A stretch of DNA of 62,960 bases, filler included, from Chrysochromulina tobinii (lineage: Eukaryota), in the NCBI GenBank assembly GCA_001275005.1. It is 4 parts of 4 records of this genome, joined end to end, with 100 filler letters (N's around TTAATTAATTAA, not from the genome) between each part and the next. Parts side by side here need not be neighbours in the genome. Positions count along the whole stretch, not along the records: positions 48,106 to 62,960 come from JWZX01001016.1; 3 more parts are not named here. One strand, written 5' to 3'. The translations under genes and the position numbers were made by a program. Positions 23,770 to 62,960 of this stretch are shown in pieces; within the stretch, counting starts at the first letter, position 1, and each line of letters starts with the position of its first letter. Under the pieces are notes generated by a model. The model saw only the letters and a list, made by a program, of their open reading frames with translations, was not told the origin of the DNA and did not search any database.

Positions 23770-23942
23770 CGAGAAGCGTGTGCAATCTTCTCCAGATCCA
23801 ATCTTCCCAAAGTTGGCATTCAACTGGAGTCGTTTGCATACAATTGTACGTGTCACCACACGTACATGTAACACGTAAATTGGCCAAACCGGGGTCTGCT
23901 TCGACGTTGACGAAACTGTGTTCCGCGGCATCTCCGATCACA

Positions 23943-25235
23943 ATGCCGACGGACAAAAAACCCACGAGAACCGTCCTCACCGTGATCGCGGCGCTTGTGG
24001 TTCCAATCCTAGCCTTGGACAATGGCCTCGCGCGTAAGCCTCCGCTCGGCTGGAGCACATGGCTCACATGCGAGGACGACAAGGAATGCGGTCACGACGT
24101 GTGCAATGAGGCGGAGGTCAAGGCGTCGGCCCTGGCACTTCAGTCAAATGGCATGCAAGCTCTCGGATGGCACTACATTGTGCTCGACGACTGCTGGGCG
24201 TATGCGCGCAACACGACGACGGGCCGATTGACCTGGGATGCGTCGCGCTTTCCCTCCGGTATGCCTGCGCTCGTCGAGTGGATGCACGAGCGAAACTTCC
24301 TGCTCGGCTTGTACACGTCGGCGGGCAATGAGACATGCTCGAGCGGCGGGCGCCCGATCACGGTGCCGGGCTCGCGTGGCCACTACGATGTGGACGCCCA
24401 GACGTTTGCAGACTGGCGTGTAGATTACGTCAAGCTCGACTGGTGCGGCGACGTGAAGCATGAGCCCTGGGTGGGCCCAAGCGCCCATCACGAGTTCGCC
24501 ACAGCTATGAACGCGACCGGCCGACCCATGATACTTGAGGTGGTGGCGGGGTACTTCTTCACGGGTCCTGCACAGGTGGCCAGCGTGGCCAATGTGTGGC
24601 GCTTCTGCGAGGACCACCACGACAGCTGGAAGTCGACCGCAGAGAACGTCCTGTGCCGAGAAGACCAAGGTGCACGAAGCAGCTTGCCAGGCGGCTGGGG
24701 ATACATGGACGTGCTCACCACGGGCGGCGCGGGATGCTCGCTCGCGGCGCACTGCCCCGGCCAGACCGAGGACGAGTATCGCACCGAGTTCGCCATCTGG
24801 ACCCTCACGCAGTCGCCTCTCATGATCGCAACCGACGTGCGCAACATGAGCAGCTTGGCACAAGCCACGCTTCTCAATGCGGAGATTTTGAGCGTGCACC
24901 AGAGCACCGCCACGCTTCCAGGCCGGCGGCTGGCCACAGCAGCCGACGCGTGCGCACTGCCGGCACTCTGTGCCGTTTGGGGGCGCGCACTCAACGCAGC
25001 AGGTACCACCTGGATCCTTGCTCTCGTCAATCTCGACAATATCTCTGTGCAGGAGGTGAGCGTCAGTTTCGCCGACCTCGGCTGGAATGCATCGGCGATG
25101 GCGGGTGCGCTTGTTCGCGACCTGTGGGCACGGCACGATTTGCCCGATGCAACGGGGGGCAAGGTGACCGCAAGGGTGCCCACGCACGGCACTGCGCTGC
25201 TGCGAGTCGAGCGCATTGGCAATCGTGATCCATGA
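23943..25235 (+). CDS. Alpha-galactosidase, GH27, secreted
   Basis: LDNGLARKPPLGWSTW, IVLDDCW, DAQTFADWRVDYVKLDWC (nucleophile Asp) and SPLMIATDVR. Confidence 0.93.
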   Translation: MPTDKKPTRTVLTVIAALVVPILALDNGLARKPPLGWSTWLTCEDDKECGHDVCNEAEVKASALALQSNGMQALGWHYIVLDDCWAYARNTTTGRLTWDASRFPSGMPALVEWMHERNFLLGLYTSAGNETCSSGGRPITVPGSRGHYDVDAQTFADWRVDYVKLDWCGDVKHEPWVGPSAHHEFATAMNATGRPMILEVVAGYFFTGPAQVASVANVWRFCEDHHDSWKSTAENVLCREDQGARSSLPGGWGYMDVLTTGGAGCSLAAHCPGQTEDEYRTEFAIWTLTQSPLMIATDVRNMSSLAQATLLNAEILSVHQSTATLPGRRLATAADACALPALCAVWGRALNAAGTTWILALVNLDNISVQEVSVSFADLGWNASAMAGALVRDLWARHDLPDATGGKVTARVPTHGTALLRVERIGNRDP

Positions 25236-25961
25236 GTGTTGTGGTGTTGACACGACCCAGAAGAGGTCCTTAGGAATCCTAGAGACGGCCAGTGCGGAAG
25301 CGTTACCGCGAAAACTGAGCCGACTCGATGCATTCTCGGACTCAAATTGCCCTTCAAGACCCACGTGAGCCATGTCTCGTGTCTCGAGGCGCCGTCGAGG
25401 GGCTGTCACTTTTATAAAGACTTTAACGCGACGTTATACACACGTACTGCCTCCGGCAACTCGAAATACGGGATGGTCTCGCAGTACTTCGTTGCGCGCG
25501 CGTGCTGGCCAACCTGTCGATGTTCCATGGCCTCAGCCTGCCTCCCATCGCATCTCGCCCCGCCCCAGCTCGCAATTGATGCCGCTAAGATGCCGCGTTC
25601 TGACTACTGACTTAAAACCCAGGACGACCGGCCCGCGGCCGGAAAGTTCTGCTACGATTATATTACAATTTCGTACAAGCAACAAGGGACCCACAACTGA
25701 CGACAGAATTACATTTTTCTGATGAACCACATCCGCCACCGGCAAGCCGCACGCACCAGATTGCACAGTGACCAGAAACGGATGCAATAAAGCCCGGCGG
25801 GCGCGCAGCACATCGCGCCACCCTCAAAGCACGCGACTCAGTGGACTCGCACACAGACAGTCACACCTTCAGCTTCACTGGGAGCCAGTGCAGTGCACGA
25901 ACGCACTCGGAGCTCGTTCACTGGAGACGGCGCTCCAATTGACATGCGATCTCAAGAGATC

Positions 25962-27092
25962 TCACGAGATGCTCACACTCTTGCCATCGCCCTTGTTGCC
26001 CATATCGCAAGCGTCCGTCATGGTTTGCGTCACCACCACGGACTTGGTGAGCGTGTCGAGGCTCTTGCCCTCCTCCTTGGAGTACGCCTCGACCTGCGTC
26101 TGAATCCAGTCGTACGTGTACTTGAGGCCCTCCTTGAGCGGCGTCGTCGGCGCCCAGCCAAGCACCTGCTTGATGAGCGTATTGTCCGAGTTGCGGCCGC
26201 GTACGCCCTCTGGCCCGGGGATGTGCTTAATCGGGAGCTGCTTGCCCTTGAACTCGAGGACCATCTCAGCCATCTGGTTCATGGAGACCATCTCGTCCGA
26301 GCCGATGTTGAGCGGCTTCTTGTAGTCGGAGACCATCAGCCGGATGATGCCCTCGACGCAGTCGTCGATGTAGCAAAAGGAGCGGGTCTGCAGGCCATTT
26401 CCCCACATCTCGAACTCAACCGTCGAGGTGATCGCCTTGCGGCTGAAGGCGGCGGGAGCCTTCTCGCGCCCGCCCTTCCACGTGCCGAGCGGGCCGTAGA
26501 TATTGTGGAAGCGGCCGATGCGGCACTCCATGCCGAAATCCGCATCGTAATGCATCAGCAGCTCCTCTGTCATCAGCTTCTCGAGGCCATATGCGTCCTG
26601 CGGCTGTGCGGGCCACGCGTCCTCCTCCTTGAGGCCGCTCGCGCCTCCGAGGTTCTCGTCGAGCTGCTTATACTCGGGGTAGATGCACGCGCTCGACGCG
26701 TACCAGAAGCGCTTGACGCCTGCCTTGCGCGCCGCCTCGGCCACATTGAAGGAGATCATGGTCGAGTTGTACAGGATGCGGCTGTGGTTGGACTGGATGA
26801 AGCCCATGCCACCCATGTCGGCTGCGAGGTTGAAGCACCACTCGCAGCCCGCGACGGCCTTCTCGCAGGCGTCGGCGTAGCGCAGGTCGAGGTTGACGAA
26901 CTCGTCGCAAAACTCCTCCGGCTTCATGTACTCGTTCTCCTTCCAGTCCACGGCACGCACCCAGTGGCCCTCCGCCTTGAGGCGGCGCGCAAGGTGCGAG
27001 GCGATGAAGCCGCCTGCGCCGGTGACACAGATCTTGATGCCGGACGGAAAGTCTTTGGTGAATTTGCACTCGGACACGGGGGGGAGCACCAT
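25962..27092 (-). CDS. GME: GDP-mannose 3,5-epimerase
   Basis: TGAGGFIASH, NLAADMGGMGFIQSNH, ASSACIYP, YGLEK, GGREKAPAAF and GPEGVRGRNSDN. Confidence 0.96.
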   Translation of the reverse strand: MVLPPVSECKFTKDFPSGIKICVTGAGGFIASHLARRLKAEGHWVRAVDWKENEYMKPEEFCDEFVNLDLRYADACEKAVAGCEWCFNLAADMGGMGFIQSNHSRILYNSTMISFNVAEAARKAGVKRFWYASSACIYPEYKQLDENLGGASGLKEEDAWPAQPQDAYGLEKLMTEELLMHYDADFGMECRIGRFHNIYGPLGTWKGGREKAPAAFSRKAITSTVEFEMWGNGLQTRSFCYIDDCVEGIIRLMVSDYKKPLNIGSDEMVSMNQMAEMVLEFKGKQLPIKHIPGPEGVRGRNSDNTLIKQVLGWAPTTPLKEGLKYTYDWIQTQVEAYSKEEGKSLDTLTKSVVVTQTMTDACDMGNKGDGKSVSIS

Positions 27093-43264: not shown

Positions 43265-45678
43265 CTACATGTCGAGGATGGCGTTGAAGGTGGGGCTTGC
43301 ACGCATCGCGGCGATGCACTTCTTCACGTCAGGCTTCCAGTAGCCGCCAATGTCAACGCTGGGGCCCTGGCAATCAATGAGCTCCTGCACAATCTTGACC
43401 TCGTTGGCGACGAGCTGCTTTGCCATCGGCGCGAAGCTCTCGTCGTGTTTCGCCATCGCCTCAGCCCAGTAGAGGGCAATGTAGAAGGTGGAGCCGCGGT
43501 TGTCGAGCTGCTTCACCTTGCGCGACGGTGACTTGTCGTTGTCCAGCAGCTTGCCAGTGGCCTCGTTGAGCGTGTCCGCGAGCAGCTGGACGCGCTTGTC
43601 ACCCGTCTTCGACGCGTGCTCCTCGAGCGAGACCGCGAGCGCGAGGTACTCGCCGAGGCTGTCCCATCGCAGGTGGCCCTCCTTAACAAACTGCTGCACG
43701 TGCTTCGGCGCCGAGCCGCCGGCGCCCGTCTCGTACAGCCCGCCGCCCGCGAGCAGCGGCACGATCGAGAGCATTTTGGCCGAGGTGCCCAGCTCGATGA
43801 TGGGGAAGAGATCCGTCAGGTAGTCACGCAGCACGTTGCCAGTGACAGAGATCGTGTCTTTGCCCGCGCGCGCGTTGGCCATCGACGCCTTAATGGCGGG
43901 CACCGGCGCGAGGATGGAGAGGTCGAGACCCTTCGTGTCATGCTCCTTGAGGTACTCCTTCACCTTGCCGATGAGCGTGCGGTCGTGGGCACGCTCCTCG
44001 TCGAGCCAAAAGATAGCCTTGGCGTTCGTGGCGCGCGCGCGCGTCACGGCTAGCTTCACCCAATCTCGAATGGGCGCGTCCTTGGTCTGGCACATGCGCC
44101 AGATGTCGCCCACGCCGACCTTGTGCGCAAAGATCTCCTTGCCCGAGCCACTGTCCACCACCTTGACAGTGCCCGCCTTCTTGATCTCGAAGGTCTTGTC
44201 GTGGGAGCCGTACTCCTCCGCTTTCTGTGCCATCAGACCCACATTGGCTACGCTGCCCATCGTGCTCACGTTGAACTGGCCGTTCGCCTTGCAATCGTCG
44301 ATGACGGCCTGGTACATGGTGGCATAGCAACGGTCGGGGATGATCGTCATCGTGTCCTCGAGCTTGTCGTGCTTGTTCCACATCTTGCCCGAGTCGCGGA
44401 TGACGACAGGCATCGAGGCGTCGATGATGACATCCGACGGCACGTGCAGGTTTGTGATGCCTTTGGCCGAGTCGACCATCGCAAGCGGCGGCCGGGTCGC
44501 GGCGGCCGCCTCGAAGTCGGCCATGATCGCGTCCTTATTAGGCATCTTCGCGATCGTGTCGTACACGGCTCCTAACCCGTTGGTCGGATTGGCGCCCGCG
44601 GCCTTGAGCGCAGCTCCGTGCTTGGCGAAGGCATCCTTGAAGAAGATCTCGATGGCGTGGCCGAACATGATGGGGTCGGAGACCTTCATCATGGTGGCTT
44701 TCAGGTGGAGCGAGACCATCAGGTTGTCTTTTTTCGCGCTCGTGAGCGACGCCTCGAAAAAGGCGCGTAGGTGGGCGGCGGACATGCACGCCGCGTCGAT
44801 TACCTCGGCCGCCTGCAGCTTCGTCTCGGCCTTGAGCACCTGCACGGCCGATCCGTCGGCCGGGTGAAGTTCGATGCGCACCGAGGTGGCCGTCGGGACC
44901 GCCGTCGAGAGCTCCGAGCCGAAAAAGTCGCCTTCGGACATGTGTGCCACATGCGTCTTCGACTTGGGATCCCAAGCGCCGAGCTTGTGCGGCCGCTTCT
45001 GGGCGTACGCCTTGACCGGGCCGGCGACGCGCCGGTCCGAATTGCCCTCGCGCAGCACTGGGTTAACGGCGGAGCCGAGCACCTTGGAGTACTTGGCATG
45101 GATCGCCTTCTCCTCCTCCGTCGAGGGCGACGACGGGTACTTGGGCACATTGAAACCCTTGGATTGGAGCTCCTCGATTGCGGCATGGAGCTGCGGGATG
45201 GAGGCCGACACGTTGGGCAGCTTGACGATGTTGGCGGCAGGCGTCTTGGCGAGCTCGCCGAGCTTGGCGAGCTCGTCATCGACGCGCTGCTCCGGCTTAA
45301 GGCGGTCGGAGAACTGCGACAGGATGCGGCCTGCCACAGAGATGTCGACGGACTCAACAGCGAGGCCAGCAGGCTTCGTAAAGCGCTCTATGACGGGCAG
45401 CAGCGCAAAGGTAGCGAGCGCCGGCGCCTCGTCCGTGTACGTCCACACGATCTTATTGGGTTTGCTCGAGCTGCAAATGGCGAGAGTCGCGATTGGTCAC
45501 TCAGTCCAGGATCATCATGGCGAGTCAGGGGAGACAGCCACGCACGCACGCAGGCAGCGGTGGAGGGCGCTCTGTGCTGGCTGCGTTGATGCGCGTACGT
45601 GGCGAGCGCGCGGACGCCGATGGACACCACGGGCGAGCGCGTGAGGGCCCGCGGGGCGCGAAGAAGCAACGTCGCCAT
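43265..45678 (-). CDS. icd: Monomeric-type isocitrate dehydrogenase with mitochondrial presequence; intron 45598-45471
   Basis: [52 protein letters not shown] and [11 protein letters not shown]. Exon 1 ([27 protein letters not shown]) splices in frame. Confidence 0.95.
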
Positions 45679-48005: not shown

Positions 48006-48105
48006 NNNNNNNNNNNNNNNNNNNNNNNNNNNNNNNNNNNNNNNNNNNNTTAATTAATTAANNNNNNNNNNNNNNNNNNNNNNNNNNNNNNNNNNNNNNN
48101 NNNNN
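48006..48105. other. Artificial contig join
   Basis: 100-nt N/TTAATTAATTAA/N spacer. Confidence 0.97.
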
Positions 48106-48296
48106 ATCAAGGCCAATCAGGGGGTTCATCAAGGCCAATCAGGGGGGTCATCAAGGCCAATCAGGGGGTCATCAAGGCCAATCAGGGGGGTCATCAAGCT
48201 CGCACCTGCTCCGTGCCCTCATCAGGGGTCATCAAGCTCCATCAAGGCCAATCAGGGGGGTCATCAAGGCCAATCAGGGGGTCATCAAGCTCGCAC

Positions 48297-50918
48297 CTGC
48301 TCCGTGCCCTCATCAGGTAGGGCGTGCGCCTCAATCCATTCCCCAAGGGCCTCGGCCTCCTCCGGATCTTCCCACAGCACATGAGGCAGCACCGCGATCG
48401 TGTCCACCACCGTCACCGCACGCCGCCCATGGGCCGCCGCGCATGACTGCAGCAGCTGCGCGGCGCGCCGGAGTCGCCTGTCAATTAGGGGTCAATCAAG
48501 GTACAATTAGGGGGCAATTAGGGGTCGCGCCGGAGTCGCCTGTCAGGCACGTAGCCATTAAGGTCAATTAGGGGGCAATTAGGAGGGTCAATTAAGGTGC
48601 AATTAGGGGCAAGTCGGGCGGAGTCGCCTGTCAGACACGTAGCCGCCCCCCTGCCCGTCGACGCCCTGATCGCGTGTGAAGGCACGAGCATCGCGCAGCA
48701 GCATTGCCACGTGTCGCGGCAGCTCCACACTCTTGGCGGCGACGCGCACGTGCTCGAGCACCTGCCATCAACGGCAATCAATGACAATCAGCGTCCAATA
48801 GGGTCCATCTCGGCACGATCTCGAGCACCTGCCGTAGCGTGAGCTCGGGTTGTTCCAAATTAGGAAGCCCGGTCCGCTCCAAATCTGGAAGCCCGATGGC
48901 GCAACCCCCCGGGTCATCAGCGCCCGACTCGGCGCGTCCGGCGACCCCAAGCAGCAGCTCGAGCACGCCGTCGTCCGAAACGGGCGTCACTCGTCGACGC
49001 AAGAGGAAGCGATCGTACAACGCAGCGAGCTCCTCCGACTCCGGGCCTGCCATGGGGTAATTAGGGGGCAATTAAGGACCAATTAGGGGACAATTAAGGT
49101 ATAATTAGGGGCAGGTAGGGCCCATCAGATGCCAATTGGAAGGCATGCAGAGGGGCAATCAGGAGCAGTCAATCAGTGGGGCAATCAGAGAGGTCATCAG
49201 GAAGGCAATCAGGGAGGCCATCAGAGGACGCACCCTCATTCGAAGCCGCAATTAGGGAGGTCATCAGGAAGGCAATCAGGGAGGCCATCAGAGGACGCAC
49301 CCTCATTCGAAGCCGCGACCGCCGAGAGCAATTAAGGCAATTAGGGCAATCAGGGAGGCCATCAGAGGACGCACCCTCATTCGAAGCCGCGACCGCCGAG
49401 AGCAGAGGTACACACTCGCGCGTGGCGCCGTCGTCAAAGAGCCGCTCGTTGAGCAGTGTGAGCAGAGTGTTGAGGATGGCGGAGTTGGCTTTGAATACCT
49501 GATGAGAGGGGCAATCAGACTGATGAGGGAGGCAATCAGTGTTGAGGATGGCGGAGTTGGCTTTGAATACCTGATGAGGGGGGCAATCAGGCGCAATTAA
49601 GGGCACGCTTGATGGTCATCAGTGTCACAAGGTGGCCATCTGAGGGCACTCATCAGTGGCAATCAGACCTCGTCCAAAAAGAGGAGCTCTGCCGCGGGCG
49701 CATAGCCAGCCGTCGCCCGTCTATACTCGTCACGCTCCAGCGCCGCCAGGGAGAGCGGCCCAAAGAGTTCCTGTGGGGTCGAGAGGCGCCGTGGTGAGCG
49801 CATGCATGCTGGGAGAGCGGCCCAAAGAGTTCCACAGGGTTCCAAGCGGCCTAAAGAGTGCCTCGGGGGTTGTGAAGCGCGTCAGGGTGCGCTCGAAGAG
49901 GCGGAGCTGGGCGGCGGAGGAGAGGCGGCGACACAACTCCGACTTGGCGGTGCCTGATGAGGGAGGCAATCAGGGAACCATCAGGGTTCATCAGGATTCA
50001 TCAGGGGACCATCAGCGGGTCAGCAGGGGGCAATCAGCCGCACTCAGCTGCACTCAGCTGAATTCAGTGGCAATTAGAAGCCATCAGCGGTCATCAGCGG
50101 TCATCAGCGGTCATCAGCGGTCATCAGCGGTCATCAGCGGTCATCAGCAGTCATCAGGGAGGTCATCAGCGTACCAGGCGGGCCGAGGAGGAGAAGGTGT
50201 TCGCTGCCAACCAGGGCCAGCAACAGCAGACGTGCCTCTGTGCCACGCTCCACGAGGCCACTCTCGAGGACTCGACCGGCCGTCTTCAGAGCCGCTGCCA
50301 TTGAAGCCCGATCGCAAGCAGCAGCACCAGCACCAGCAGCACCAGCAGCACCAGCACCAGCACCAGCAGCACCAGCACCAGCAGCGCCAGCACCAGCAGC
50401 ACCAGCACCAGCAGCACCAGCAGCACCAGCAGCACCAGCAGCACCAGCACCAGCAGCACCTTCAGGCTGGGTCGACAGCGCGCATTCGAGCTCAGGGTCG
50501 TCACGTCGTCGCTCACTCAGCCGTTGCTGCACTCGTGCCATAGCGCGAGCGCGTAACGACATCGGATCCTCTTGCACAACTGTGTCGCCTTGCATGCGCA
50601 TCATTGCCCCCTGGCCTTGCATGCGCATCATCGCCCCTTGGCTGCGAGTTCCCTTCGTTACACGGGCACCTCTGATTGCATGCTGATTGCCTCCCTCATC
50701 ACGAGTTCCCTTCGTTACACGGGCACCTCTGATTGCATGCTGATTGCCTCCCTCATCACGAGTTCCCTTCGTTACACGGGCACCTCTGATTGCATGCTGA
50801 TTGCCTCCCTCATCACGAGTTCCCTTCGTTACACGGGCACCTCTGATTGCATGCTGATTGCCTCCCTCATCACGAGTTCCCTTCGTTACACGGGCACCTG
50901 CACCCGAGCGGCTCGCTG

Positions 50919-50957
<39 letters not shown>

Positions 50958-53900
50958 GCTGCTGCTGCTGCTGCTGCTGCTGCTGCCGCTGTGCGGTCGC
51001 GGCGCGCATCACCGCCAGTGGGTCGACATGGGCGAGACAGTCGTGGACCACGTCACACATCGCATCAAGGGGCGTCGGGCGTGGCTCGCCTACGAGAAGG
51101 CCGTGCACCTGTTTCACACAGGTCGACCGAACCCACTCAGAAAGATTAAAGAGAAACCATCATCAGGCACTCAGCAGGCCATCAGCATGCAATCAGCAGG
51201 CCCTCACCTCGAACCCCTGCTCGCGCTGCAGCCGTCGAAGGCGCGCGTGCGTGGGTGCATCCAGCGGCGGATCGGGTAGCTCGCCGTCCGAGACGAGCAA
51301 GATGTCGGCGCCGCTGTACACCACCTGATGAGGGAGGCAATCAGCATGCACTCAGGGATGCCATTAGGATGCCATCAGCGACCGCGAAGCTGGCCGGTGG
51401 CGGAGTGGTGCAATCAGAATCAGTCAGAAGCAATCAGAAGCAATCACCTCCTCCGCTACTGGAGTCTCAATCAGAAGCAATCAGAATGCAATCACCTCCT
51501 CCGCTACAGGAGTCTCGAGCACATCGAGGGCACGACGGAGGGGGCCTGCCACGTCAGTACCGCCGCCGAAGCTGCACACACGCGAGATCGAGCGGGAGAT
51601 TGATCGCACACAAGCGAGATCGAGCGGGAGATTGAGCAGAAAGGCGAGATCGAGCGGGAGATTGAGCATGGTGATGAGTGCACTCGGAGGCAATCATCAC
51701 GTGCACTCGGAGGCAATCAGAAGTGCAATCACATGCAGGGGTCATGAGTGGTGATCACCTGCATGCGAGAAAGTCGAGCAGTTTGACGAGACTTGCTCGG
51801 TCTGTGAGCCCAGCAGTCGAGCCACCAGCTCGGCGCCGGCGCCGACGCCACGTGTTGCTACTCGGCGGTGGGGTGAGCGCGAGCTCCGCCAGATCTGATT
51901 AGCGAGGCAATTAGGGAGGCAATTAGGGAGGCAATTAGGGAGGCAATTAGGGAGGCAATTAGGGGGTGAGCGCGAGCTCCGCCAGATCTGATGCATGCCC
52001 GAAGAGGCAAAGAGGATGGTAATTAGGGGGCAATTAGAGCGCAATGAGGGGATAATGAGGGGTAATTAGTGGCCATCAGCTGCAATCACGCGCCATCAGG
52101 GAGCGTGAGGACACTCACCGGATTGGCCCGAGAAGGCAAACAGGAGGCAAGGGCGGCCTGCCCCATGGGCGGCCTTGACAGCCTCAAGCACGACTGCCTT
52201 AGCAAGCTGCTCTCGCCCGCCTGCCATCGAATGGGACGTGTCCAAACATACGACCAGCGGACCGCCCGAGGTACGCGGCAGACGCGAAGGGCGCTTGGGC
52301 AACGGCCGCCCCGGCGCCTCTGCCCATCCCTCGAGTGCATAGCCCAAAAGTTGACGCTCGGCTAGCCGACGAAGGAAGAGGCGTCGGCGACCGCCACGGC
52401 GCTCAGCACCCGCCGACGGTGAGTCGCGAGCATCATCATGCCCATCATCATCTCCGTCATGCTCGTGGCCGTCCCAGTGCTTCGCGCCGTCCCGGGCACT
52501 CGCGGGCAACTTGGCGAGTAGGGCGAGCTCCGACGGGGCGGTGCGCGCGAGATCCCCAGTGCGCGTCAGCCCACCTGATGAAGGAGGCCATCAGAGGCAC
52601 TCAGAGGCACTCACGAAGTCATCAAGTAATCAGACCATCTGATGAAGGAGGTCATCAAGAGTACTGGGTAGTCATCAGGGGTGCAATCCGCCCACCAAGC
52701 TCCCGGGGTGCAAGAGGGTGATGAGGGAGGTCATCAAGGGTACTGGGTAGTCATCAGGGGTGCAATCAGCCCACCAAGCTCCCGGGGTGCAAGAGGGTGA
52801 TAAAGGAGGTCATCAAGGGTACTGGGTAGTCATCAGGGGTGCAATCAGCCCACCAAGCTCCCGGGGTGCAAGAGGGCTTAATGCAGCGGACGGTGCAGCA
52901 TTGGGATCGGCGAGACTCCCCGACCCGCGTACAGGCACGCCCTCTGACGTGGCACGCCGACCCAGGCTCGCGAGCAGCGTACTCAGCGCGTCGAGCTCAC
53001 TCAGCTGCCGTTGAACTACCTGATGAGCGTGGCATTTGTGACGTCATCAGTGACCATCAGCGGCAATCCGACGTCATCAGTGACAAATAGGAACAGCCAT
53101 CGGAGAGCCTCAGGGGTTCACAGCTGCGATTGGAGAGCCTCAGGGGTTCACAGCTGCGATTGGAGAGCCTCAGGGGTTCACAGCTGCCGATTGGAGAGCC
53201 TCAGGGGTTCACAGCTGCGATTGGAGAGCCTGAGGGGTTCACAGCTGCGATTGGAGAGCCTCAGGGGTTCACAGCTGCGATTGGAGAGCCCCAGGGGTTC
53301 ACAGCTGCGATTGGAGAGCCTCAGGGGTTCACAGCTGCGATTGGAGAGCCTCAGGGGTTCACAGCTGCGATTGGTCCACCCGACGTGCTTCCACAGCCCA
53401 TCCCGCAATCATGCGCAATCAGGGCGCCTCCTCAGTGGCCCTCACCTCGATCGTCTTCCACCCGACGTGCTTCCACAGCCCATCCCGCAATCATGCGCAA
53501 TCAGGGCGCCGCCTCAGTGGCCCTCACCTCGATCGTCTTCCACCCGACGTGCTTCCACAGCCCATCCGCCAAGCTGAACTGCTGCCCAGGCGCGGCGGTG
53601 AGGGCGCCAGCGTCGGCACCGGCTGCACCGCCGAGGGCCTCAATGGCGCGCACGCCCGCGAGTGGCGCGGACCACTCGGCGCCCAGCGCCTCGGCGAGCT
53701 CGCGCGCGAGATCGTCGATCTGCCGCGCGAGATCGTCCTCAGTCAGTGCCGCCGGCACGTCCTCGGCTGCCTCCTGATCCTCCTCGCAGAGCGTTGGCGC
53801 GCTTCCAAAGTCTTGGTCGGCTCCGGCGCGAGCGTCCGTTTCAAGCTCGGGCTCCTCGGCGAGCAGCTTGCCCTGCGCTTGGTCAAAGCTCACGGCCGCG

Positions 53901-54265
53901 CCGAGCACCGCTGTGAGCGCGGCAGCAACCAGAGACGGATGCCGGGCCGTCATGCGTGGCAAGCCGAGATCGCTCATGGTGCGCGTCAAGTGGCCGAGGA
54001 GGGGCTCGGGCGGCCATGGCGCGTCAGAGTCGATGCCGCCAAAGTCTGGGCAGCGCCCGGAAACGAGCGCGCGCCGCCATGCCGATAAGCCGCTCGCGGC
54101 CGCCGAGAGCTCTCCGAGGCTCGCCGTGGGCTCGAGGACGCCGGAGCGAAGCAGCCTGCCCACAAGTGGGTCATCGACGGCGGTGGCGGAAAAGGCGAAA
54201 CTCGGCGGAGGCCGAGCGGCCGGCGAGAAGAGAAGGCTGGGAACGAGGGCCAAGCCGATGAACAT
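48297..54265 (-). CDS. ViaA-like VWA domain fused to RavA-like MoxR AAA+ ATPase (3'-partial, 14 introns)
   Basis: Manually spliced exons: 54265-53528, 53019-52854, 52574-52119, 51894-51759, 51571-51496, 51324-51208, 51108-50898, 50669-50175, 49953-49862, 49770-49669, 49498-49375, 49046-48829, 48761-48628, 48477-48297. All phases agree. VWA motifs: [42 protein letters not shown]+ motifs: Walker A GPPGTAKS, TRFTTPEELFGPLS, Walker [35 protein letters not shown]. Confidence 0.88.
50670..50897. repeat. 57-bp tandem repeat x4 (putative intron 7 of the fusion gene, or an in-frame insert)
   Basis: Each unit is exon sequence GGTGCCCGTGTAACGAAGGGAACTCG plus TGATGAGGGAGGCAATCAGCATGCAATCAGA. The block is bounded by GT..AG on the minus strand. 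Confidence 0.9.
53098..53373. repeat. 30-bp intronic minisatellite, about 9 copies
   Basis: Unit GATTGGAGAGCCTCAGGGGTTCACAGCTGC. Confidence 0.95.
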
Positions 54266-55494: not shown

Positions 55495-58400
55495 ATGCTG
55501 TACACGAAGTCTGCCCTCGAGGCGCATGCGGACAAGGCGGCCATTGAGACGGCGTGGGACCCGCGCAAGCCCGGCTTCTACTTTTTGACCCGCGCCGCCG
55601 TGCTGGACCTGACCGCCTCGCAGCTGCAGCGTATGCAGGAGATGCGCGACTCGAAGCTGCTCGTGAAGGTGCTCATCGACCTGAACGACGCCTTCCAGGG
55701 CAAGGGGCTGATCGAGAGCGTCCTCTTCGTCAGCCACAGGTGGGAAGACCCCGCGACGCCAGACGAGACCGGCGCGCAGCTGGCGGCGATCAAGGCGCAC
55801 CTGCTCGACCACCCCGAGATCCAGTTCGTCTGGTTCGACTACTCGTGCATGCCACAACGCTCGAGCGGCTTATCGCCGGATCAGGACGACCGCACGCCCG
55901 CGGAGAAGGCCGAGTTCGACCTCATGCTCAAATCGATCGCCGACCTCTACCTGACGGCCAAGGTGCTGATCCTGCTCGACACCATGTACCGCACGCGGTT
56001 CTGGACGACGATGGAGGGCTGGTGCGCGATGCAGAAGGTGACGCCGCAGGGCGTGCGCCCGGCAAGGGCGGGCGAGTCGCGTGTCACCGTCGTGTGCATC
56101 CACAACGCGACGCAGCACGACGAACGGGCCCTGCTGGAGATGTCGACCAAGACGGCGGAGGAGATCACCAAGTTCCTCGCGTCGCCCGACGTGGCGGTGA
56201 CGAACAAGAAGGACAAGACGACGATGCTGCCGATCGTCGGCAAGACCGACGAGCGCGTCCGGGAGATGATGAGCGGCATGCACAGCGTGATCCCAGAGTC
56301 GCACGAGGAAGAGCTGCGAGAGGACGACAACCCGATAACGCTCTTCATCGACTCTGCACGCGAGAGGGTGGGGAGCTTGTTTGGAATCACCCCCTTGGTC
56401 ATGGAGCGCGAGGGTGCGACGACAGGAAACGCCGCTGCCTCCGAGCTGCATGTGCAGATCCCCGTGCGCGCGAGCAGCGCGCCCGAGCCCTTCTACCAGG
56501 GATTCCACCCGGGCATCACGTGCGGCCGTTCGGGCATGAACCCGATTGTGGGCATGCGCTTCCACCTGCGCGGCAGCGAACCATCGTCCGACCTGTGCCA
56601 GGCGGAGTACGATAAGCTGGACGACGCCGAGAATGGCCTGTACGAGGCGATTCCGCCGCCGCCGCCCGGGCTCAAGCTCGAGGGCGGCTCGCTGCCTGGC
56701 TACGCTGCCGACTACCCGGGCACGTACCGTCTCGCCGACGGCAAGCTTGTCAACGGCCGGCCCGCGTATCAGCACACGACTGATGCAACTCTCTGGATAG
56801 CGTTCGATGGAGTTGATAGCTGGATGGGGCAGCCTGAGTCGCTACTTGGTGAGAAGAAGGGCTTCCTAGGCCTACGAGACCGAGCTGCAGCTTCGCCCGA
56901 CGTGAGCGCTAAGACATGGAAAGCGAGCGGTGGTGCAGGCGCTGGTTGGGTTGAGGCGCCGCAGCTCAAGTGCACCGCTTGGACGCCGCCGCCGCTGCCG
57001 CCCGGGCTCAAGCTCGAGGGCGGCTCGCTGCGTGGCGTCGCGGCCAAATACATGGCGCTGCCCGGCGAAGCGGCCAAATACATGGGCGGGTACCGTCTCG
57101 TCGTCGGCAAGCTTGTCAACGGCCGGCCCGCGTATCAGCACACGAGCGATGCTACTCTCTGGATTACGTTCGCTGGAAATGGCTGGATTGGGCAGCCTGA
57201 GTCAGCACTTGGTGAGGAGAAGGGCAACCTGGACCTACGAGACCCAGCTGCAGCTTCGCCCGACGTGAGTGCTAAGACATGGATGGCGACCGCGGGCGGT
57301 GCAGACAATCCTTGGGTTGAGGCGCCGCAGCTCAAGTGCACCGCTTGGACGCCGCCGGCGCTGCTGCACGGGCTCAAGCTTGAGGGAGGCTCGCTGCCTG
57401 GCGGCGCCGCCGAGTACATGGGCGGGTTCCGTCTCGCCGACGGCAAGCTTGTCAACGGCCGGCCCGCGTATCAGCACGTGACCGATGGATCGCGCTGGCT
57501 CGCCTTCGATGGAGCCATCTGGCGTGGGCAAACCGTGGCCGACCTTGGTCAGAAGCGGGGCGTTCTACAACTCCCGGATGAAGCTGCTGCCACCCCGGAT
57601 GCGAGTGCTGCGCCGTGGCTCTGTGGTTGGGCACCGCAGCCGCAGCTCCAGTGCATCCCTTGGACGCCGCCGCCGCTGTCGCCCGGGCTCAAGCTCGAGG
57701 GCGGCTCGCTGGCCGGCGCCGCGGCCGAGTACATGGGCGGGTACCGTCTCGACCGCAGCAGGCCTGTCAACGGCCGACCCGCGTATCAGCACATGGCCCA
57801 TCTCACGCGCTGGCTCGCGTTCGATGGAGCCATCTGGCGTGGGCAGCCCGAGGCCGACCTTGGCAAGAAGCGGGGCGTTCTGCAGCTCCCAGACACAGCC
57901 GCTCTCACCCCGGATGCGAGTGCTGCGACGTGGCTCGCGGAGACGGGCTCTGGTTTGGCTGCGCAGCCTCAGCTCAAGTGCATCCCTTGCATCCCGCCGC
58001 CGCCGCCCGGGCTCAAGCTCGAGGGCGGCTCGCTGGGAGGCGGCGCGTCCGAGTACATGGGCGGGTACAGTCTCTACAGCGGCAAGCTCGTCAACGGCCG
58101 ACCCGCGTGGCGGCACACTACGCATTTCACGTGTTGGCTCGCGTTCGATGGAGCCATCTGGCGCGGGCAGCCCGAGGCCGACCTTGGTCAGAAGCGAGGC
58201 TTTCTGCAGCTCCCAGACGCAGGCGCTCTCACCCCGGATGCGAGTGCTGCGACGTGGCTCGCGGAGACGGGCTCTGGTTTGGCTGCGCAGCCGCAGCTCA
58301 AGTGCATCCCTTGCATCCCGCCGCCGCCGCCCGGGCTCAAGCTCGAGGGCGGCTCGCTGGGAGGCGGCGCGTCCGAGTACATGGGCGGGTACCGTCTCGC

Positions 58401-59385
58401 CGACGGCAAGCTTGTCAACGGCCGACCCGCGTATCAGCAAATGACTCTGGGATCGAGCTGGGCGGCTGATGGATCGCGGTGGATCGCGTTCAATGGAAAA
58501 GATAGCTGGATTGGGCAGTCTGAGGCTGACCTTGGTAAGGGGAATGGTATACTGTTGCTACTAGACGCAGCTGCTGCGACGCCCGACGTGAGCACTAAGA
58601 CGTGGAAGGCGTGGGCGGGAGCGACGGGCTCTGGTTGGGTTGAGGAGCCGCCCCTCAAGTGCATCCCTTGGACTCCTTCGCCGCCTCCGCTGTCGCCCGG
58701 ACTCAAGCTCGAGGGCGGCTCGCTGCCCGGCGCAGCGGCCGAGTACATGGGTGAGTACCGGCTCGTCGTAGACGACCGAGTCGGGTGGCCGCCCCAAGCG
58801 GTCAAGGCTGGCTGGCCAGGCAACCACATGCTTGTGAACGGCCGACCCGCGTGGCGGCACACGACGCATCTCAAGTGCTGGCTCGCGTTCGATGGAGCCA
58901 TCTGGCGCGGGCAGCCCGAGGCCTCACTTGGTCAGAAGCGGGGCTTTCTGCAGCTCCCAGACGCAGGCGCTCTCACCCCGGATGCGAGTGCTGCGACGTG
59001 GCTCGCGGCCGGCGGCCCGGGCTCTGCGGGGGCTGCGCAGCCGCAGCTCAAGTGCATCCCTTGTGCTGCACCGGAGTTGTCCCAAGTCGAGCTCAAGGAG
59101 CTCCCGGTCAAGCACTTTCGCGGCCCCTGCGCCGACTGCTGCAAGCCGCTGGCGCCGTGCTGCTGCGTCTCGGCGGACGGCGAGGCGATCTTTGGCTGCG
59201 TGCCCACGGAGCCGGGCTACATTCTGCCGGCGTGCCTCCACATGGCCTTGTGCCCGCAGCTGGGGTGCGATCCAAAGGGGGGCTTCTTGCAACTCGATTG
59301 CAGGGAATTCTGCTTTTACACTTTGCTTCCCTTTGTTTGCTGCTGTCAAATTTTTGCACCACCTCGCTTCTCTTTTTTTTGGTAG
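55495..59385 (+). CDS. HET/TIR-like domain + degenerate ZZ finger + seven ~105-122-aa repeats + Cys-rich C-terminal module
   Basis: HET-like FVSHRW, VWFDYSCMPQ and YRTRFWTTME; ZZ-like HPGITCGRSGMNPIVGMRFH...DLCQAEY; GLKLEGGSL repeat starts at 56668, 57004, 57370, 57685, 58009, 58333 and 58699; tail CADCCKPLAPCCC. Confidence 0.8.
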   Translation: MLYTKSALEAHADKAAIETAWDPRKPGFYFLTRAAVLDLTASQLQRMQEMRDSKLLVKVLIDLNDAFQGKGLIESVLFVSHRWEDPATPDETGAQLAAIKAHLLDHPEIQFVWFDYSCMPQRSSGLSPDQDDRTPAEKAEFDLMLKSIADLYLTAKVLILLDTMYRTRFWTTMEGWCAMQKVTPQGVRPARAGESRVTVVCIHNATQHDERALLEMSTKTAEEITKFLASPDVAVTNKKDKTTMLPIVGKTDERVREMMSGMHSVIPESHEEELREDDNPITLFIDSARERVGSLFGITPLVMEREGATTGNAAASELHVQIPVRASSAPEPFYQGFHPGITCGRSGMNPIVGMRFHLRGSEPSSDLCQAEYDKLDDAENGLYEAIPPPPPGLKLEGGSLPGYAADYPGTYRLADGKLVNGRPAYQHTTDATLWIAFDGVDSWMGQPESLLGEKKGFLGLRDRAAASPDVSAKTWKASGGAGAGWVEAPQLKCTAWTPPPLPPGLKLEGGSLRGVAAKYMALPGEAAKYMGGYRLVVGKLVNGRPAYQHTSDATLWITFAGNGWIGQPESALGEEKGNLDLRDPAAASPDVSAKTWMATAGGADNPWVEAPQLKCTAWTPPALLHGLKLEGGSLPGGAAEYMGGFRLADGKLVNGRPAYQHVTDGSRWLAFDGAIWRGQTVADLGQKRGVLQLPDEAAATPDASAAPWLCGWAPQPQLQCIPWTPPPLSPGLKLEGGSLAGAAAEYMGGYRLDRSRPVNGRPAYQHMAHLTRWLAFDGAIWRGQPEADLGKKRGVLQLPDTAALTPDASAATWLAETGSGLAAQPQLKCIPCIPPPPPGLKLEGGSLGGGASEYMGGYSLYSGKLVNGRPAWRHTTHFTCWLAFDGAIWRGQPEADLGQKRGFLQLPDAGALTPDASAATWLAETGSGLAAQPQLKCIPCIPPPPPGLKLEGGSLGGGASEYMGGYRLADGKLVNGRPAYQQMTLGSSWAADGSRWIAFNGKDSWIGQSEADLGKGNGILLLLDAAAATPDVSTKTWKAWAGATGSGWVEEPPLKCIPWTPSPPPLSPGLKLEGGSLPGAAAEYMGEYRLVVDDRVGWPPQAVKAGWPGNHMLVNGRPAWRHTTHLKCWLAFDGAIWRGQPEASLGQKRGFLQLPDAGALTPDASAATWLAAGGPGSAGAAQPQLKCIPCAAPELSQVELKELPVKHFRGPCADCCKPLAPCCCVSADGEAIFGCVPTEPGYILPACLHMALCPQLGCDPKGGFLQLDCREFCFYTLLPFVCCCQIFAPPRFSFFW

Positions 59386-59835
59386 CTCCCTGAAGGATTC
59401 GAACCCGCAGCCTTTCGCACCGCTCGGCTCGGCCCCCGCCCCGCGAGCCCCTCGTGTGCTCCCACCGCTGAGCGCCCCCCTGCCCCTCACGCCTGCTCCA
59501 CCCGGCTCGCTGCGCTCAGGGTCTGTTGCTGGGAGTTGAGATGTGGCAGCTCGACGTGGCGCTGCATGGATGATCCATGCAAGGCTTGCTGAAGTCGCTG
59601 CGAGCCTCCCTCGGACCAGCCGCAAGAAGCGTGCCTCTGCGGGGTTGCCTCTTCGGGGGGTGTCTTGTTCCCGCCGTGCATGCGACACCGCCGCTCAGCA
59701 TGTGTGACCTCACGCGGTGAGGCTCCGCGCGCACCGAGCGTCGCGTTCTGCATCGTGCAGGGCAGCGTGCTGCCCTTTGGCGATGCACCGTGCGTCTGCT
59801 TCAACGGCCGCGAGAACAGGGGCAGACGGCCCGTT
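59373..59835 (-). repeat. Dispersed repeat, copy 1, containing a tRNA-like segment (A box, B box, CCA, A-run)
   Basis: Minus strand reads GCTCAGCGGTGGGAGC...GGTTCGAATCCTTCAGGGAGCTACCAAAAAAAA. Homologous to 60726-60890 (direct) and about 61800-62462 (inverted). Confidence 0.65.
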
Positions 59836-60135
59836 TCGTTTCACGTACGTAGTACAAAATAGTACAATCTTTGTACGACATACACTCGCCTGACGCCTGT
59901 GGCGTGTTCGCCTCCGGCGACGAGTTGGAGGTTCCGCACTTAACAGCCAATTCACACCTCATTTTTCTCCAGTTTCTGCAAATGTCGGAGAGGGCGAGGA
60001 CGGCCGCGGCCAACGTGGGCCTGGCCACGGCGGGCTTGTTGCCTACGAACATGCTGGGGAGCGCGGTGCCGGGGCGCCTCGCCATGGGGCTGCCGCCGTC
60101 GGGGCCGGTGCAGCTCGGGGCCGGTGCAGCTCGGC

Positions 60136-60739
60136 TGTCGGGTCTTGCCTCTCCTCCACCGGATCTGGCCTCGCCTCCATCTCTGGATGTTGCGTCTCGT
60201 CCGCTGGGTCTAGCCTCTCCTCCACCGGATCTGGCCTCGCCTCCATCTCTGGATGTTGCGTCTCGTCCGCTGGGTCTAGCCTCTCCTCCACCGGATCTGG
60301 CCTTGCCTCCATCTCTGGATGTTGCGTCTCGTCCGCTGGGTCTTGCCTCTCATCCACCGGATCTTGCCTCTGCTTCATCCCTGGATGTTGCTTCTCCTGC
60401 ATCCGTGGATGCTGGGAGCCAATGCAGGTCGAGCGCTTTCGCGGCCCCTGCGCCGTCTGCTGCAAGCCACTGGCGCCGTGCTGCTGCGTCTCGGCGGACG
60501 GCGAGGCGATCTTTGGCTGCGTGCCCACGGAGCCGAACTACATTCTGCCGGCGTGCCTCCACATGGCCTTGTTCCCGCAGCTGGGGTGCGATCCGAAGGG
60601 GGGCGTCGAGAACTTTGGCGATGGTCGAAGGGGGGGCAAAAGGAGCATGGTTTGCAAGTGGCTGTGCCTCGTCAATTTGCTTGCCACTCTCTTTGTTTGC
60701 TTCCGCTTCCGCCGTAGTTTTGTTTTGGTGGCGCCCTGA
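60136..60739 (+). pseudogene. Partial paralogue: 60-bp (20-aa Ser/Cys) tandem repeats followed by the Cys-rich module
   Basis: 60435-60605 is nearly identical to 59116-59285. It is preceded in frame by (SAGSxLSSTGSGLASISGCCVS)-type repeats; no HET or GLKLEGG domains. Confidence 0.55.
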
Positions 60740-60924
60740 AGGATTTGAACCCGCAGCCTTTCGCACCGCTCGGCTCGGCCCCCGCCCCGCGCGCCCCTCG
60801 CGTGCTCCCACACCGCTGAGCGCCCCCCTGCCCCTCACGCCTGCTCCACCCGGCTCGCTGTGCTCAGGGTTTGTTGCTTGGAGGTGTGGCAAGTACTTCT
60901 GCGACGCCTAATCGGTACCTACAC

Positions 60925-61738
60925 ACAACGGGGCATTTAGGCATGGCTTTGAGGCTTAGAATTCCACGAGGGACTGCAATGATGTTGGATCCATGTCTAC
61001 AGTATACGGCTTCCGCGGGGAGAGAGCGATCGTCGGCGATCGAAAGGGTCTTGCTACGTGCTCGGTGTGACGGGCGGGAGGCGCGCGAACAGGTCTCTCG
61101 GCTCTCCCCACAAACTCAGTCTCGGGTGTTGCGATTCGATCATGATATTCATGTGGCCACGTCGCAGGCGTGGTAAGGCGTGGTATCCGGTATCTTCGTC
61201 GTCTGTGTGTATGGCTGTGTCGGTCTTCTCCGCATGCGCCTGGTCTTTGATTCTGGACAGTCGTAACTCGTGTGACTTAACACTTTTATGTCATGAGACC
61301 GTGACACATGTGACTCAGCAAACAGAAACACTCCACCGCCCCACGCCGGATGCGGGTGGTCGGAATTCAATGATTACACTCTTTACACCGACTCGCGACG
61401 GGACTGCGGAGCGCGGGCAGTAACAGTGCCGCGTAGCACCGGTCTGTCGCGTCTGTCGTGTTAAAGTTCACACTCTTGAGGTGCGTGCAGGTGCGTGAAA
61501 CGGGTACGAAGCGCAGTGGTCGGTTTCTCAGATCTCGCCTCTGAAACTCGTGACGGCTGTCCCTTACACTTGCTCCCCACCCCCGATAGTTCGAAAGTTT
61601 GTAGCGATACCCTTTCGATCGCCGACGATCGCTCTCTCCCCGCGGATGCCATCGTACCGGTAGACATGGATGCAAAATCACGGCAGTCTCTCGTGTGGCG
61701 TGTTCTAGGACTCACAGCCATGCCTCCTCGACCCGTTG
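60925..61738. repeat. Diverged inverted repeat, arms ~60925-61058 and ~61601-61738
   Basis: Core CCGCGGGGAGAGAGCGATCGTCGGCGATCGAAAGGGT and its exact reverse complement; the flanks also align. Confidence 0.85.
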
Positions 61739-61874
61739 GCCGTTTGTTGCGCACTCCGACGAACGAGAGCGAAGAGAGGCCCCAGGCGAGGCAGCATGTG
61801 CGGCGGAGACAGGGCGCCCTCTGCCCCTGTTCTCGCGGCCGTTGCAGCAGACGCACGGTGCATGGCCAAAAGCA

Positions 61875-62960
61875 TTACGCTGCCCTGCACGATGCAGAAC
61901 GCGACATTCGCTGCGCGGGGAGCTCACCGCGTGAGGTCGCGCATGCTGAGCGGCGGTGGCGCATGCACGGCGGGAACAAGACACCCCCGAAGAGGCAACG
62001 CCGCCGCTCACAGGGGGAAGCACGCTTCTCGCAGGTCCGAGGGAGGCTCGCAGCTACTTCGGCGGATCCATGCAGCGCCACGTCGAGTCGCCTCTTCTCC
62101 ACTCCCAGAACCAGACCCTGAGCGCAGCGAGCAGGGTGGAGCAGGCGTGAGGGGCAGAGGAGGCCGAGCTGAGCGGTGGGATCACACAAGGGGAGCGCGG
62201 GGCGGAGGCCGAGCCGAGCGTTGCAAAAGGCTGGGGGGTCGAGTCCCTCTCCCCGGGTACAACATGAAAGGCTGGGGGGGTCGAGTCCCTCTCCCCTGGT
62301 CCAAAAGGAAAGGTTGGGGAATCGAGTCCCTCTCCCCTGGTCCAAAAGGAAAGGCTGCGGGTACGAGTCCCTCTCCCCGGGTCCAAAAGGAAAGGTTCGG
62401 GGGGTCGAGTCCCTCTCCCCGGGTACAATCGCATGCTGGTTCGAATCTTTGAGGTGGTACCAACGTAAGTCGGTTTCTTGTTGAAAGGCGAAAGATTCAA
62501 CTTGCACGCAGCAAACAGCTTCGCTGGAGTCATCGCTGGTCGCCGCTGAATTTCCTTGAATGCAGCAAAGACCGAGAGTAGTCATCAAAGTGGTGACGTA
62601 CAGAACCTGGCGAGGACCTTCCCCTCCCAGTTTCTCGACGCTACCAAGTGGATCGCACCCCAGCTGCGGGCACAAGGCCATGTGGAGGCACGCCGGCAGA
62701 AAGTAGCTCCGCTCTGTGGGCACACAGCCAAAGATCGCCTCGCCGTCCGCCGAGACGCAGCAGCACGGCGCCAGAGGCTTGCAACGGTCGGCGCAGGGCC
62801 CGCGGAAGTTCTTGACTGAGACCTCTCGAGCGGCGGCTGCCCGAGCGCGACGCTCCTCTTTAGCGCGAAGTGCTGCGGCCGCCTGCGCGGCCGATAATTC
62901 AGCGGCGGTTGCAATGGTGCACTTGAGTGCTGGCTGTGAAGCCCACGCAGAGCCCGAACC
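61875..62960 (-). CDS. Convergent paralogue of the 55495 gene (5'-partial; true stop uncertain)
   Basis: From 62960 the frame reads GSGSAWASQPALKC (end of the repeat domain)...NFRGPCADRCKPLAPCCCVSADGEAIFGCVPTE...CPQLGCDP. Confidence 0.7.
   Translation of the reverse strand, partial: GSGSAWASQPALKCTIATAAELSAAQAAAALRAKEERRARAAAAREVSVKNFRGPCADRCKPLAPCCCVSADGEAIFGCVPTERSYFLPACLHMALCPQLGCDPLGSVEKLGGEGPRQVLYVTTLMTTLGLCCIQGNSAATSDDSSEAVCCVQVESFAFQQETDLRWYHLKDSNQHAIVPGERDSTPRTFPFGPGERDSYPQPFLLDQGRGTRFPNLSFWTRGEGLDPPSLSCCTRGEGLDPPAFCNARLGLRPALPLCDPTAQLGLLCPSRLLHPARCAQGLVLGVEKRRLDVALHGSAEVAASLPRTCEKRASPCERRRCLFGGVLFPPCMRHRRSACATSRGELPAQRMSRSASCRAA
62226..62462 (+). repeat. Five ~41-bp units resembling a tRNA T-arm + 3' end, then a final GGTTCGAATC...ACCA
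   Basis: Units of the form AAAGG(N8-9)(T/A)CGAGTCCCTCTCCCC(G/T)GGT(A/C)CAA start at 62226, 62267, 62309, 62350 and 62391. Confidence 0.85.

Follow-up and report, generated by a model that had tools for sequence, protein, structure and literature searches.

The introns of a Chrysochromulina tobinii gene encoding a fusion of VWA and MoxR AAA+ domains (presumably ViaA/RavA-like) belong to a genome-wide family with a common build, in which a copy of the target, usually starting with GT or GC, is followed by filler, i.e. a variable run of 10-11-nt units ending in CTGATTGCCTCCCTCATCAG or a variant of it (the core), and then by the target itself. Since the upstream copy supplies a donor, and either a terminal 20-mer or a duplicated AG supplies an acceptor, the protein is left unchanged. 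The gene occupies the minus strand at 48106..54265, with its ATG at 54265, of a 62,960-nt stretch of assembly GCA_001275005.1, composed of four parts joined end to end and referred to as the window. Comparison with orthologous proteins suggests that its 13 introns are likely recent gains and, considering that nearby introns are the most alike, new introns likely arise by copying from a neighbour and not from one fixed mobile element. The specific route favoured in the current work, in which microhomology at a staggered break primes the copying of a nearby intron in its unspliced form, is one to which we give an even chance.

Introns with copies of their own exon flanks

The original prediction, made from the sequence alone, counted 14 introns in this gene; 13 of these are spliced introns, and the fourteenth is probably an array of 4.5 units of 57 bp that forms a coding insert (Table 1). 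Its proposal that the introns hold copies of their own exon boundaries is borne out beyond chance: an exact run of at least 9 nt is common to the intron and its own 40-nt flanks in 10 of the 13 introns, compared with 7 of 156 pairings with foreign flanks. Junction-repeat scores range from 2 to 15 across the introns of this gene and reach 10-15 in 4 of the 12 complete introns, against a maximum of 7 in 132 non-cognate donor/acceptor pairs. The individual copies were likewise found, namely the 82-bp units of intron 1 and the 79-bp units of intron 2, GTGGGCTGA opening both intron 2 and the following exon, GGCAG/GTGCTCGAG at both ends of intron 11 and TGACAG/GCGACTCCG at both ends of intron 12 (previously numbered 12 and 13, respectively), second acceptors and additional donors inside introns, and TCATCAG at the end of five introns.

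As had also been proposed, the local exon copy is paired with a common motif that gives a branch-point-like site and an acceptor. CTRAY is the branch-point consensus, which CTGAT and CTAAT of the filler fit, the likeness being one of sequence only. When up to three mismatches are allowed, a 19-mer motif of the family has 14 matches in the window, where 0.01 would be expected, and all of these lie in this gene; the neighbouring genes have long uninterrupted open reading frames (ORFs) and no filler block. The terminal 20-mer is variable, 7 of the 12 complete introns differing from it at 6 or more positions.

A genome-wide family without a master consensus

A scan for the exact 19-mer in 4 of the 64 parts of a metagenome collection (mixed-culture assemblies and other metagenomes) retrieved 134 stretches (128 loci), from which approximately 2400 are estimated overall. 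Redundant loci were left out, these being 13 for the core-end count, 20 for the block, strand and junction counts, 21 for the unit vocabulary and 22 for the suffix and unscanned-variant comparisons, and 121 independent filler blocks were retained. An upstream copy of the post-acceptor sequence is present in 60 of the 121 blocks, compared with 27 of 460 control sites; these duplications measure 10-69 nt, 26 of the 60 are perfect and some represent units of an array. The target copy starts with GT or GC in 28 of 35 simple cases, and the filler mostly begins at the end of that copy and finishes at the acceptor. A G comes directly after the exact core in 170 of 188 instances, with GT/GC next in 131 of the 170; among variants that had not been scanned for, the corresponding numbers are 214 of 233 and 150 of 214.

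The filler units are diverse (80 kinds among 159), and adjacent units are identical in 33 of 90 cases, compared with 4% at random. The commonest 10-mer directly upstream of the core occurs in 10 of the 121 blocks only, and at least 30 nt upstream of the core are common to 39 of 7226 block pairs, mostly as plain unit runs. The family has no master consensus and no common body beyond 20-30 nt, and a single master template was rejected because of this low upstream similarity among block pairs. The ends show 5-7 nt of complementarity between CTGAT(GA) and (TC)ATCAG, although every unit begins in this way, and the hairpin of the 20-mer is no stronger than that of shuffled sequences (z -0.72). A miniature inverted-repeat transposable element was discarded on account of this weak hairpin and of the missing fixed target-site duplication (TSD). 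A hammerhead or C/D small nucleolar RNA origin, prompted by CTGATGA, gave two weak Rfam hits far below the gathering score and outside the filler core, while for a telomerase origin, prompted by TTAGGG in one unit variant, no run of three TTAGGG was present in the 128 loci and most filler units are without it. The motif was absent from the viral contigs.

A further 289 blocks were located in 49 long loci, at 10 per 10 kb up to 1 kb from the seed and 3-5 per 10 kb beyond, the far blocks being overdispersed (50 of 76 bins empty; variance 1.30 vs mean 0.66). The original prediction had regarded the introns as a local burst. This was not upheld, because filler blocks also occur at approximately 3 per 10 kb in other loci away from seeds, the average for the window being 14 per 63 kb, all within this gene; clustering does exist, yet by gene within a genome-wide family, and in this gene introns of a common type are densely clustered. 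Blocks within 2 kb of each other lie on the same strand in a ratio of 126:9, compared with 24:53 beyond 5 kb, and block flanks were called sense in 140 and antisense in 16 cases, against a background of 352:345.

Likeness between neighbouring introns

The common filler vocabulary that had been noticed is indeed widely shared; it seems to be copied from neighbouring introns and not to be free. Blocks within 3 kb of each other resemble one another more closely in their units (0.060 vs 0.037 +/- 0.004 in 500 shuffles), a suffix score of at least 40 is reached by 9 of 409 within-locus pairs compared with 25 of 23,387 between-locus pairs (an approximately 20-fold enrichment), and the best match lies in the own locus for 21.5 of 58 blocks, against 2.2 +/- 1.8 and a maximum of 10 in 300 shuffles of culture-type loci only. 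Pairs with homologous downstream exons were excluded from these counts, and the best-match test was also performed without non-culture loci.

A parent-daughter pair is found in locus L028, where two 101-nt GC-AG introns, 2.9 kb apart on the same strand, are 95.6% identical over 113 nt, the alignment extending a few bases on each side into exons that are otherwise unalignable. Both splices locally restore the reading frame, and one intron is marked as the daughter by carrying the exon copy of the other. Truncated look-alikes, each with its own target copy, are present in L021, L035, L100 and L072. Across 9 loci, look-alike introns have on average 4.1 exon bases in common past the AG, compared with 2.2 for random pairs (p = 0.0001). 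In the gene under study, introns 3, 10 and 12 have 16 nt in common and introns 1 and 6 have 14 nt in common across the donor, neither of which occurs in 1.18 Mb of other loci. At L116:1-830, filler blocks on both strands have near-identical units and 7 common bases after AG, representing either an inverted copy or overlapping inserts.

Orthologues and age of the introns

The expectation that the introns are new is supported by orthologue ORFs that run across all 13 positions: these are covered without a break in 11 of 18 aligned homologues, although position 11 lies within a poorly conserved stretch. Two of the 11 are a gene model and a transcript (P0011, P0049) and are silent on introns, while the other nine form four clusters (the P0006, P0007, P0008 and P0009 groups), some being located on contigs of 13.6, 18, 21 and 205 kb. 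We infer that these nine ORFs are unspliced calls, since other records of the same sources run into unrelated tails. P0002, placed nearest in the tree (96/97; 13 of the tree proteins were entered with the linker of the model taken out), crosses positions 1-5 and looks unspliced, since it reads through its own 40-residue insert.

The complementary situation, a site that is empty in the window and filled in a relative, was recognised in exon 3 (Table 1). The relative, closer than P0002, is 80% identical over part of this exon. In three of its proteins, the exon is followed by a 12-residue filler-type peptide and by a frame-shifted repeat of the same exon bases; one record has a single duplication-plus-filler unit, while the others have two. 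The peptide ECMLIA is typical of filler read-through (23 of 23 matches lie in filler). The insert may not be spliced in the relative, as the residue expected of an AG/GT junction is missing. Breaks or inserts near model residues 427 and 434 in P0010, P0012 and P0013, in P0020 and P0022-P0026, and in P0002 suggest separate intron gains in the same exon by other lineages. No close relative was encountered in four environmental runs compared at 80%, no exon 3 relative in viral or prokaryote contigs, and a search with exon 1 was without match.

Alternatively, the introns could be old, having been lost in other lineages and later filled with minisatellites, so that flank copies would be by-products of slippage. 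The orthologue evidence is indeed at the protein level, and some ORFs could be transcripts or spliced calls, as P0011 and P0049 are. This view would nevertheless require the loss of all 13 introns in four clusters and of positions 1-5 in the nearest relative; moreover, relatives break off at other positions, and neither the exon-start copies at intron 5' ends nor the insert at the empty site would be explained. We therefore regard it as very improbable.

Gene model and RNA support

The 13-intron model, with 11 GT and 2 GC donors, joins to 1158 stop-free codons and shows no alignment gaps against orthologues at exon junctions. A check of the junctions against RNA had been suggested, and RNA contigs support most of the 13 introns. 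Introns 1, 2, 3 and 11 are skipped at the predicted positions, for introns 7-10 the RNA leaves exactly 318 nt, corresponding to exons of 92, 102 and 124 nt, and contigs end at the donors of introns 4 and 13. Orthologue alignment served to place introns 5 and 6 as well as the intron 4 acceptor. Intron 12 is retained in two RNA contig records, with an RNA-only break compatible with the spliced form; the retention may reflect incomplete splicing of young introns or the presence of DNA in the libraries. The last exon (approximately 170-190 aa in orthologues) lies outside the window, in or past the assembly gap.

Table 1 Introns and associated features of the VWA-MoxR gene, in positions of the window
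Feature	Position	Strand	Size and type	RNA or alignment basis	Structure
Intron 1	53020..53527	-	508 nt, GT-AG	RNA joint, X15 record 23	82-bp units with 40 nt of exon end and donor; also 30-bp array
Site empty here, filled in relative	52255..52274	-	Exon 3	P0018, P0050, P0051, protein level	
Intron 2	52575..52853	-	279 nt	RNA, X12 record 14, X13 record 19, X15 record 23	9-nt junction repeat; 79-bp units with 23 nt of exon end
Intron 3	51895..52118	-	224 nt	X13 record 19 uses 51895 acceptor	Unused internal acceptor at 51988, then 25-nt exon-start copy; rare CTAATT units common to introns 10 and 12
Intron 4	51572..51758	-	187 nt	RNA piece ends at donor; acceptor by orthologue alignment	AG supplied by 5-nt junction repeat; without terminal 20-mer
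Intron 5	51325..51495	-	171 nt	No RNA junction among listed pieces	Second donor with exon-end copy; exact terminal 20-mer
Intron 6	51109..51207	-	99 nt	No RNA junction among listed pieces	20-mer missing at 3' end
Antisense insert, same family, in exon 7	50645..50899	+	57-bp units		27-nt target copy and 30-nt filler
Intron 7	49954..50174	-	221 nt	X13 record 17 leaves 318 nt between 50174 and 49045	Filler units only; exact terminal 20-mer
Intron 8	49771..49861	-	91 nt, GC donor		Opens with 17-nt diverged copy of next exon start; second 22-nt copy internal
Intron 9	49499..49668	-	170 nt		Internal acceptor and 33-nt exon-start copy; three 20-mer variants
Intron 10	49047..49374	-	328 nt		Two additional donors; exon-end copies up to 30 nt
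Intron 11	48762..48828	-	67 nt	RNA joint, X15 record 21	Both splice sites from exact 14-nt junction repeat
Intron 12	48478..48627	-	150 nt, GC donor	Retained in X15 record 21 and X12 record 10; RNA-only unitig break at 48483 fits spliced form	15-nt junction repeat and internal copy
Intron 13	48106..48296	-	Enters assembly gap	RNA stops at 48297, then 41-43 other letters	Second donor with 21-nt exon-end copy
Assembly gap	48006..48105	.	N runs and 12-nt linker		Masks end of intron 13 and last exon

The duplications could in principle be artefacts of assembly, as the gene ends in a gap and there are no long reads. Unitigs of DNA run X1, which possibly derives from the same culture, match the window without difference at 48288-49233, 49538-50109, 51329-51931 and 51935-52613, thus covering much of introns 3-5, 7-9 and 10-12, and many other assemblies show this build as well; doubt is limited to the copy numbers of arrays, and the artefact explanation is scarcely credible. 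Summed contig depth at the filler (17,000-27,000 vs approximately 80) was not used as copy number.

Named full-length or partial homologues of the gene are from haptophytes (Prymnesium, Isochrysis, Tisochrysis), and the VWA-MoxR fusion is complete in several of these algae. In bacteria, the two domains are encoded by separate genes, and the gene may reflect an old transfer and fusion.

Antisense coding insert in exon 7

The 57-bp array comprises, as assembled, 4.5 stop-free units in frame, each of 19 codons, and is missing from orthologues. RNA contigs of two of the three RNA runs reach 28 nt into it, and no joint across it is found among the RNA joints listed, contigs showing presence and not absence. 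Given these features and its antisense orientation, it was taken to be a family member inserted into coding sequence, apparently not spliced. The (duplication+filler)n arrays at L073:7230-7373, L048:1995-2239 and L037:8416-8727, whose antisense translation matches this 19-codon unit, are candidates for further in-frame coding inserts.

A duplicated 9-codon unit at 50587-50642 adjoins the insert. The linker of exon 7 (50317-50460, 50915-50991), which contains (GA/AGA)n and poly-Gln coding repeats, is far longer than that of the orthologues.

Proposed mechanism and its alternatives

In the favoured scheme, a staggered break would open within a gene and the broken end would anneal over 2-7 bases to the first exon bases following a nearby acceptor. 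The intron would be copied backwards for a variable length from the pairing point, the copied strand would rejoin via a short match to the start of a unit, and repair would duplicate the target, so that a complete acceptor would come to lie between its two copies. An unspliced template would be needed, be it nascent RNA from the same gene or DNA close by, since an excised intron could not supply the bases shared past the AG. Considering that templates are followed by GT or GC, priming would pick targets already holding a donor, and each family intron could seed the next, which would account for the clustering by gene, the bias towards the sense strand and the missing consensus. A template of nascent RNA would also explain the rarity of neutral antisense and intergenic copies, whereas one opposite-strand look-alike pair approximately 13 kb apart in L021 fits a DNA template better. 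RNA-templated repair in cis and templated insertions by polymerase theta are both known processes. Later slippage between target copies and among units would build arrays, additional donors and second acceptors. The original prediction had envisaged iterative templated insertion; templated insertion is the best reading, while iteration within one event is not borne out, considering that many internal exon copies form (duplication+filler)n arrays which slippage could make afterwards.

A number of observations weigh against this scheme. In the gene itself, junction repeats measure only 2-5 nt in 8 of 12 introns, and 61 of the 121 blocks have no long duplication. At the left junction, microhomology of at least 2 nt (2-5 bases of the unit start) was found in 12 of 50 cases, a count with no null. 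The 9 loci of the post-AG test include the opposite-strand pair of L116, maybe an inverted duplication, and scanning for other foreign exon pieces that had been captured returned filler artefacts only and also missed L028. Local likeness could equally stem from gene conversion between existing introns. Constancy of the 19-mer is built into loci that were picked by it, and the strand classifier, which recovered only 3 of 9 held-out exons, made no call for 146 of 307 blocks. Finally, orthologues were compared as proteins only; no empty allele at the DNA level was found for any of the 13 introns, and 11 homologous or paralogous locus pairs, chosen for holding the motif, showed no presence/absence difference.

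One alternative is a non-autonomous mobile element, i.e. an introner resembling a short interspersed element (SINE) or a Replitron, with one fixed 20-nt end and a dedicated reverse transcriptase or HUH enzyme, which would produce the variable target duplications, its consensus being blurred by local hopping and slippage. One fixed end, one variable end and variable duplications are the hallmarks of target-primed reverse transcription, and the filler ends are self-complementary (CTGAT..ATCAG). Replitron-1 of Chlamydomonas inserts after RG in one orientation, with variable TSDs and sequence from the parent's flank, and a Chrysochromulina is reported to have one Replitron locus (PMC10288648). Replitrons, however, measure 0.9-3.6 kb, end in direct repeats and have a Rep gene or partner; no such body exists here, and intron-making is not reported in the available part of that source (PMC10288648). 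The absence of a common body, the divergence of most introns of this gene from the 20-mer and the unremarkable hairpin all speak against an element, as does the fact that copies are nearly all sense and acceptor-like, where random insertion should leave neutral copies both ways. A crude motif look over 0.75 Mb of loci revealed no autonomous partner (a search for (Y/F)xDD in long ORFs gave 4 hits). We consider such an element possible, though rather doubtful.

Another alternative places duplication first: tandem duplication or staggered-break repair at G/GT-like sites, of the Daphnia type, would create the intron, and filler would follow by gene conversion and slippage, favoured for better splicing. 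Introns 8, 11 and 12 do obtain splice sites from the duplication, introns 4, 6 and 8 end without the 20-mer, and terminal and internal repeats are described for 55 of 90 Daphnia neointrons (PMC4202315). Slippage is evidently active, given that unit numbers differ between the homologous loci L002 and L004. Nonetheless, the filler usually spans exactly from the end of the target copy to the acceptor, a duplication of 15-40 nt alone is probably too short for splicing, and the antisense coding insert, on which selection for splicing would not act, is built in the same way. This order of events appears unlikely.

Returning to copying from neighbours, its broadest version is a transposase-free, self-seeding intron swarm, in which break repair, primed on the unspliced RNA of the gene, would copy the acceptor end of an adjacent intron into it, so that introns would breed locally and maybe account for a large share of those in the genome. 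This version is put forward tentatively, being in our view less likely than not.

Comparison with known intron-generating systems

As originally proposed, the introns match neither introners with fixed TSDs nor plain AG/GT tandem duplication. Introners or introner-like elements have been described in Micromonas, Aureococcus, Symbiodinium, Polarella (classes 4/5 and 6/8/10) and a metagenome-assembled genome (MAG) of a marine Chrysochromulina sp. (PMC9860276, bioRxiv 10.1101/2020.10.14.339549). With these the family shares many related introns, one carried splice site with the other co-opted from the target duplication, and an unchanged protein. In contrast to their class-specific TSDs of 3-8 nt and copies similar from end to end, it has duplications of approximately 1 to over 40 nt, a variable body of unit arrays and a closest copy that is often a neighbour; the Chrysochromulina sp. 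MAG family has 4-bp TSDs and carries the 5' site, while the present family carries the 3' site. Whole-intron similarity, as expected of introners derived from DNA transposons, was seen in one pair, and the TSD is not of a fixed short length. In the broad sense of introner, these are spliced introns formed by insertion at positions absent from orthologues at the protein level, presence/absence evidence amounting to the one protein-level case in exon 3 and none in the motif-picked locus pairs. The variable TSD, one fixed end and truncation of the other resemble insertion of SINE-like, non-long-terminal-repeat elements, unlike which there is no consensus body and no spread in both orientations.

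Daphnia pulex break-repair neointrons likewise have terminal direct repeats, internal repeats and repeated events per site, although their inserts are AT-rich and of mostly unknown source, whereas here hundreds share one acceptor cassette and have traceable local templates (PMC4202315). Intron transposition by reverse splicing or R-loops resembles the family in intron-to-intron copying, coding-strand bias and nearby insertions (PMC3443670, PMC4540971). Reverse splicing would insert a clean whole intron, while the introns here are mostly 5'-truncated, with a duplicated target and common exon bases past the AG; the L028 copy is a whole intron, yet has shared bases on both sides. In AGGT tandem genomic duplication the duplicate gives both splice sites, as in introns 11 and 12, and no foreign sequence is added, unlike the common filler between copies here (PMC3443670). 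The family works like an introner carrying its own 3' site, with the footprints of Daphnia break-repair introns and a source that is shared and traceable. No description of it was found in the literature, coverage of which largely excluded subscription journals, and the motif had no match in the available part of the PMC9860276 supplement.

Other features of the window

An intronless gene for a monomeric isocitrate dehydrogenase (PF03971, 1200 bits), an enzyme mostly of bacterial type, is located at 43268-45496 and is a possible transfer. A 4.6-kb degenerate tandem array of approximately 127-138-bp units at 6149-10758 ends at an assembly gap and has no filler motif. Arrays of 324-366-, 66-, 21- and 41-bp units at 56724-62956 represent a dispersed repeated gene or element family, given that parts match L021/L022 at 77-95%.

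Significance

For the majority of new introns the source is not known (PMC3443670), and intron gain at genome scale is now credited to transposons. A 2022 introner screen demanded whole-intron similarity and discarded low-complexity families, and a 2025 table gives 0 families in the one Chrysochromulina row found (PMC12130899); the same process could therefore be missed elsewhere. The family described here unites break-repair gain and intron-to-intron copying, two separate models, over hundreds of loci or more, with parent-daughter intron pairs that are traceable. Considering that the organism is culturable and has RNA data, template, target and rate are directly testable. If the reading as a self-seeding swarm is true, such families would be invisible to introner screens that drop low-complexity or partly similar introns.

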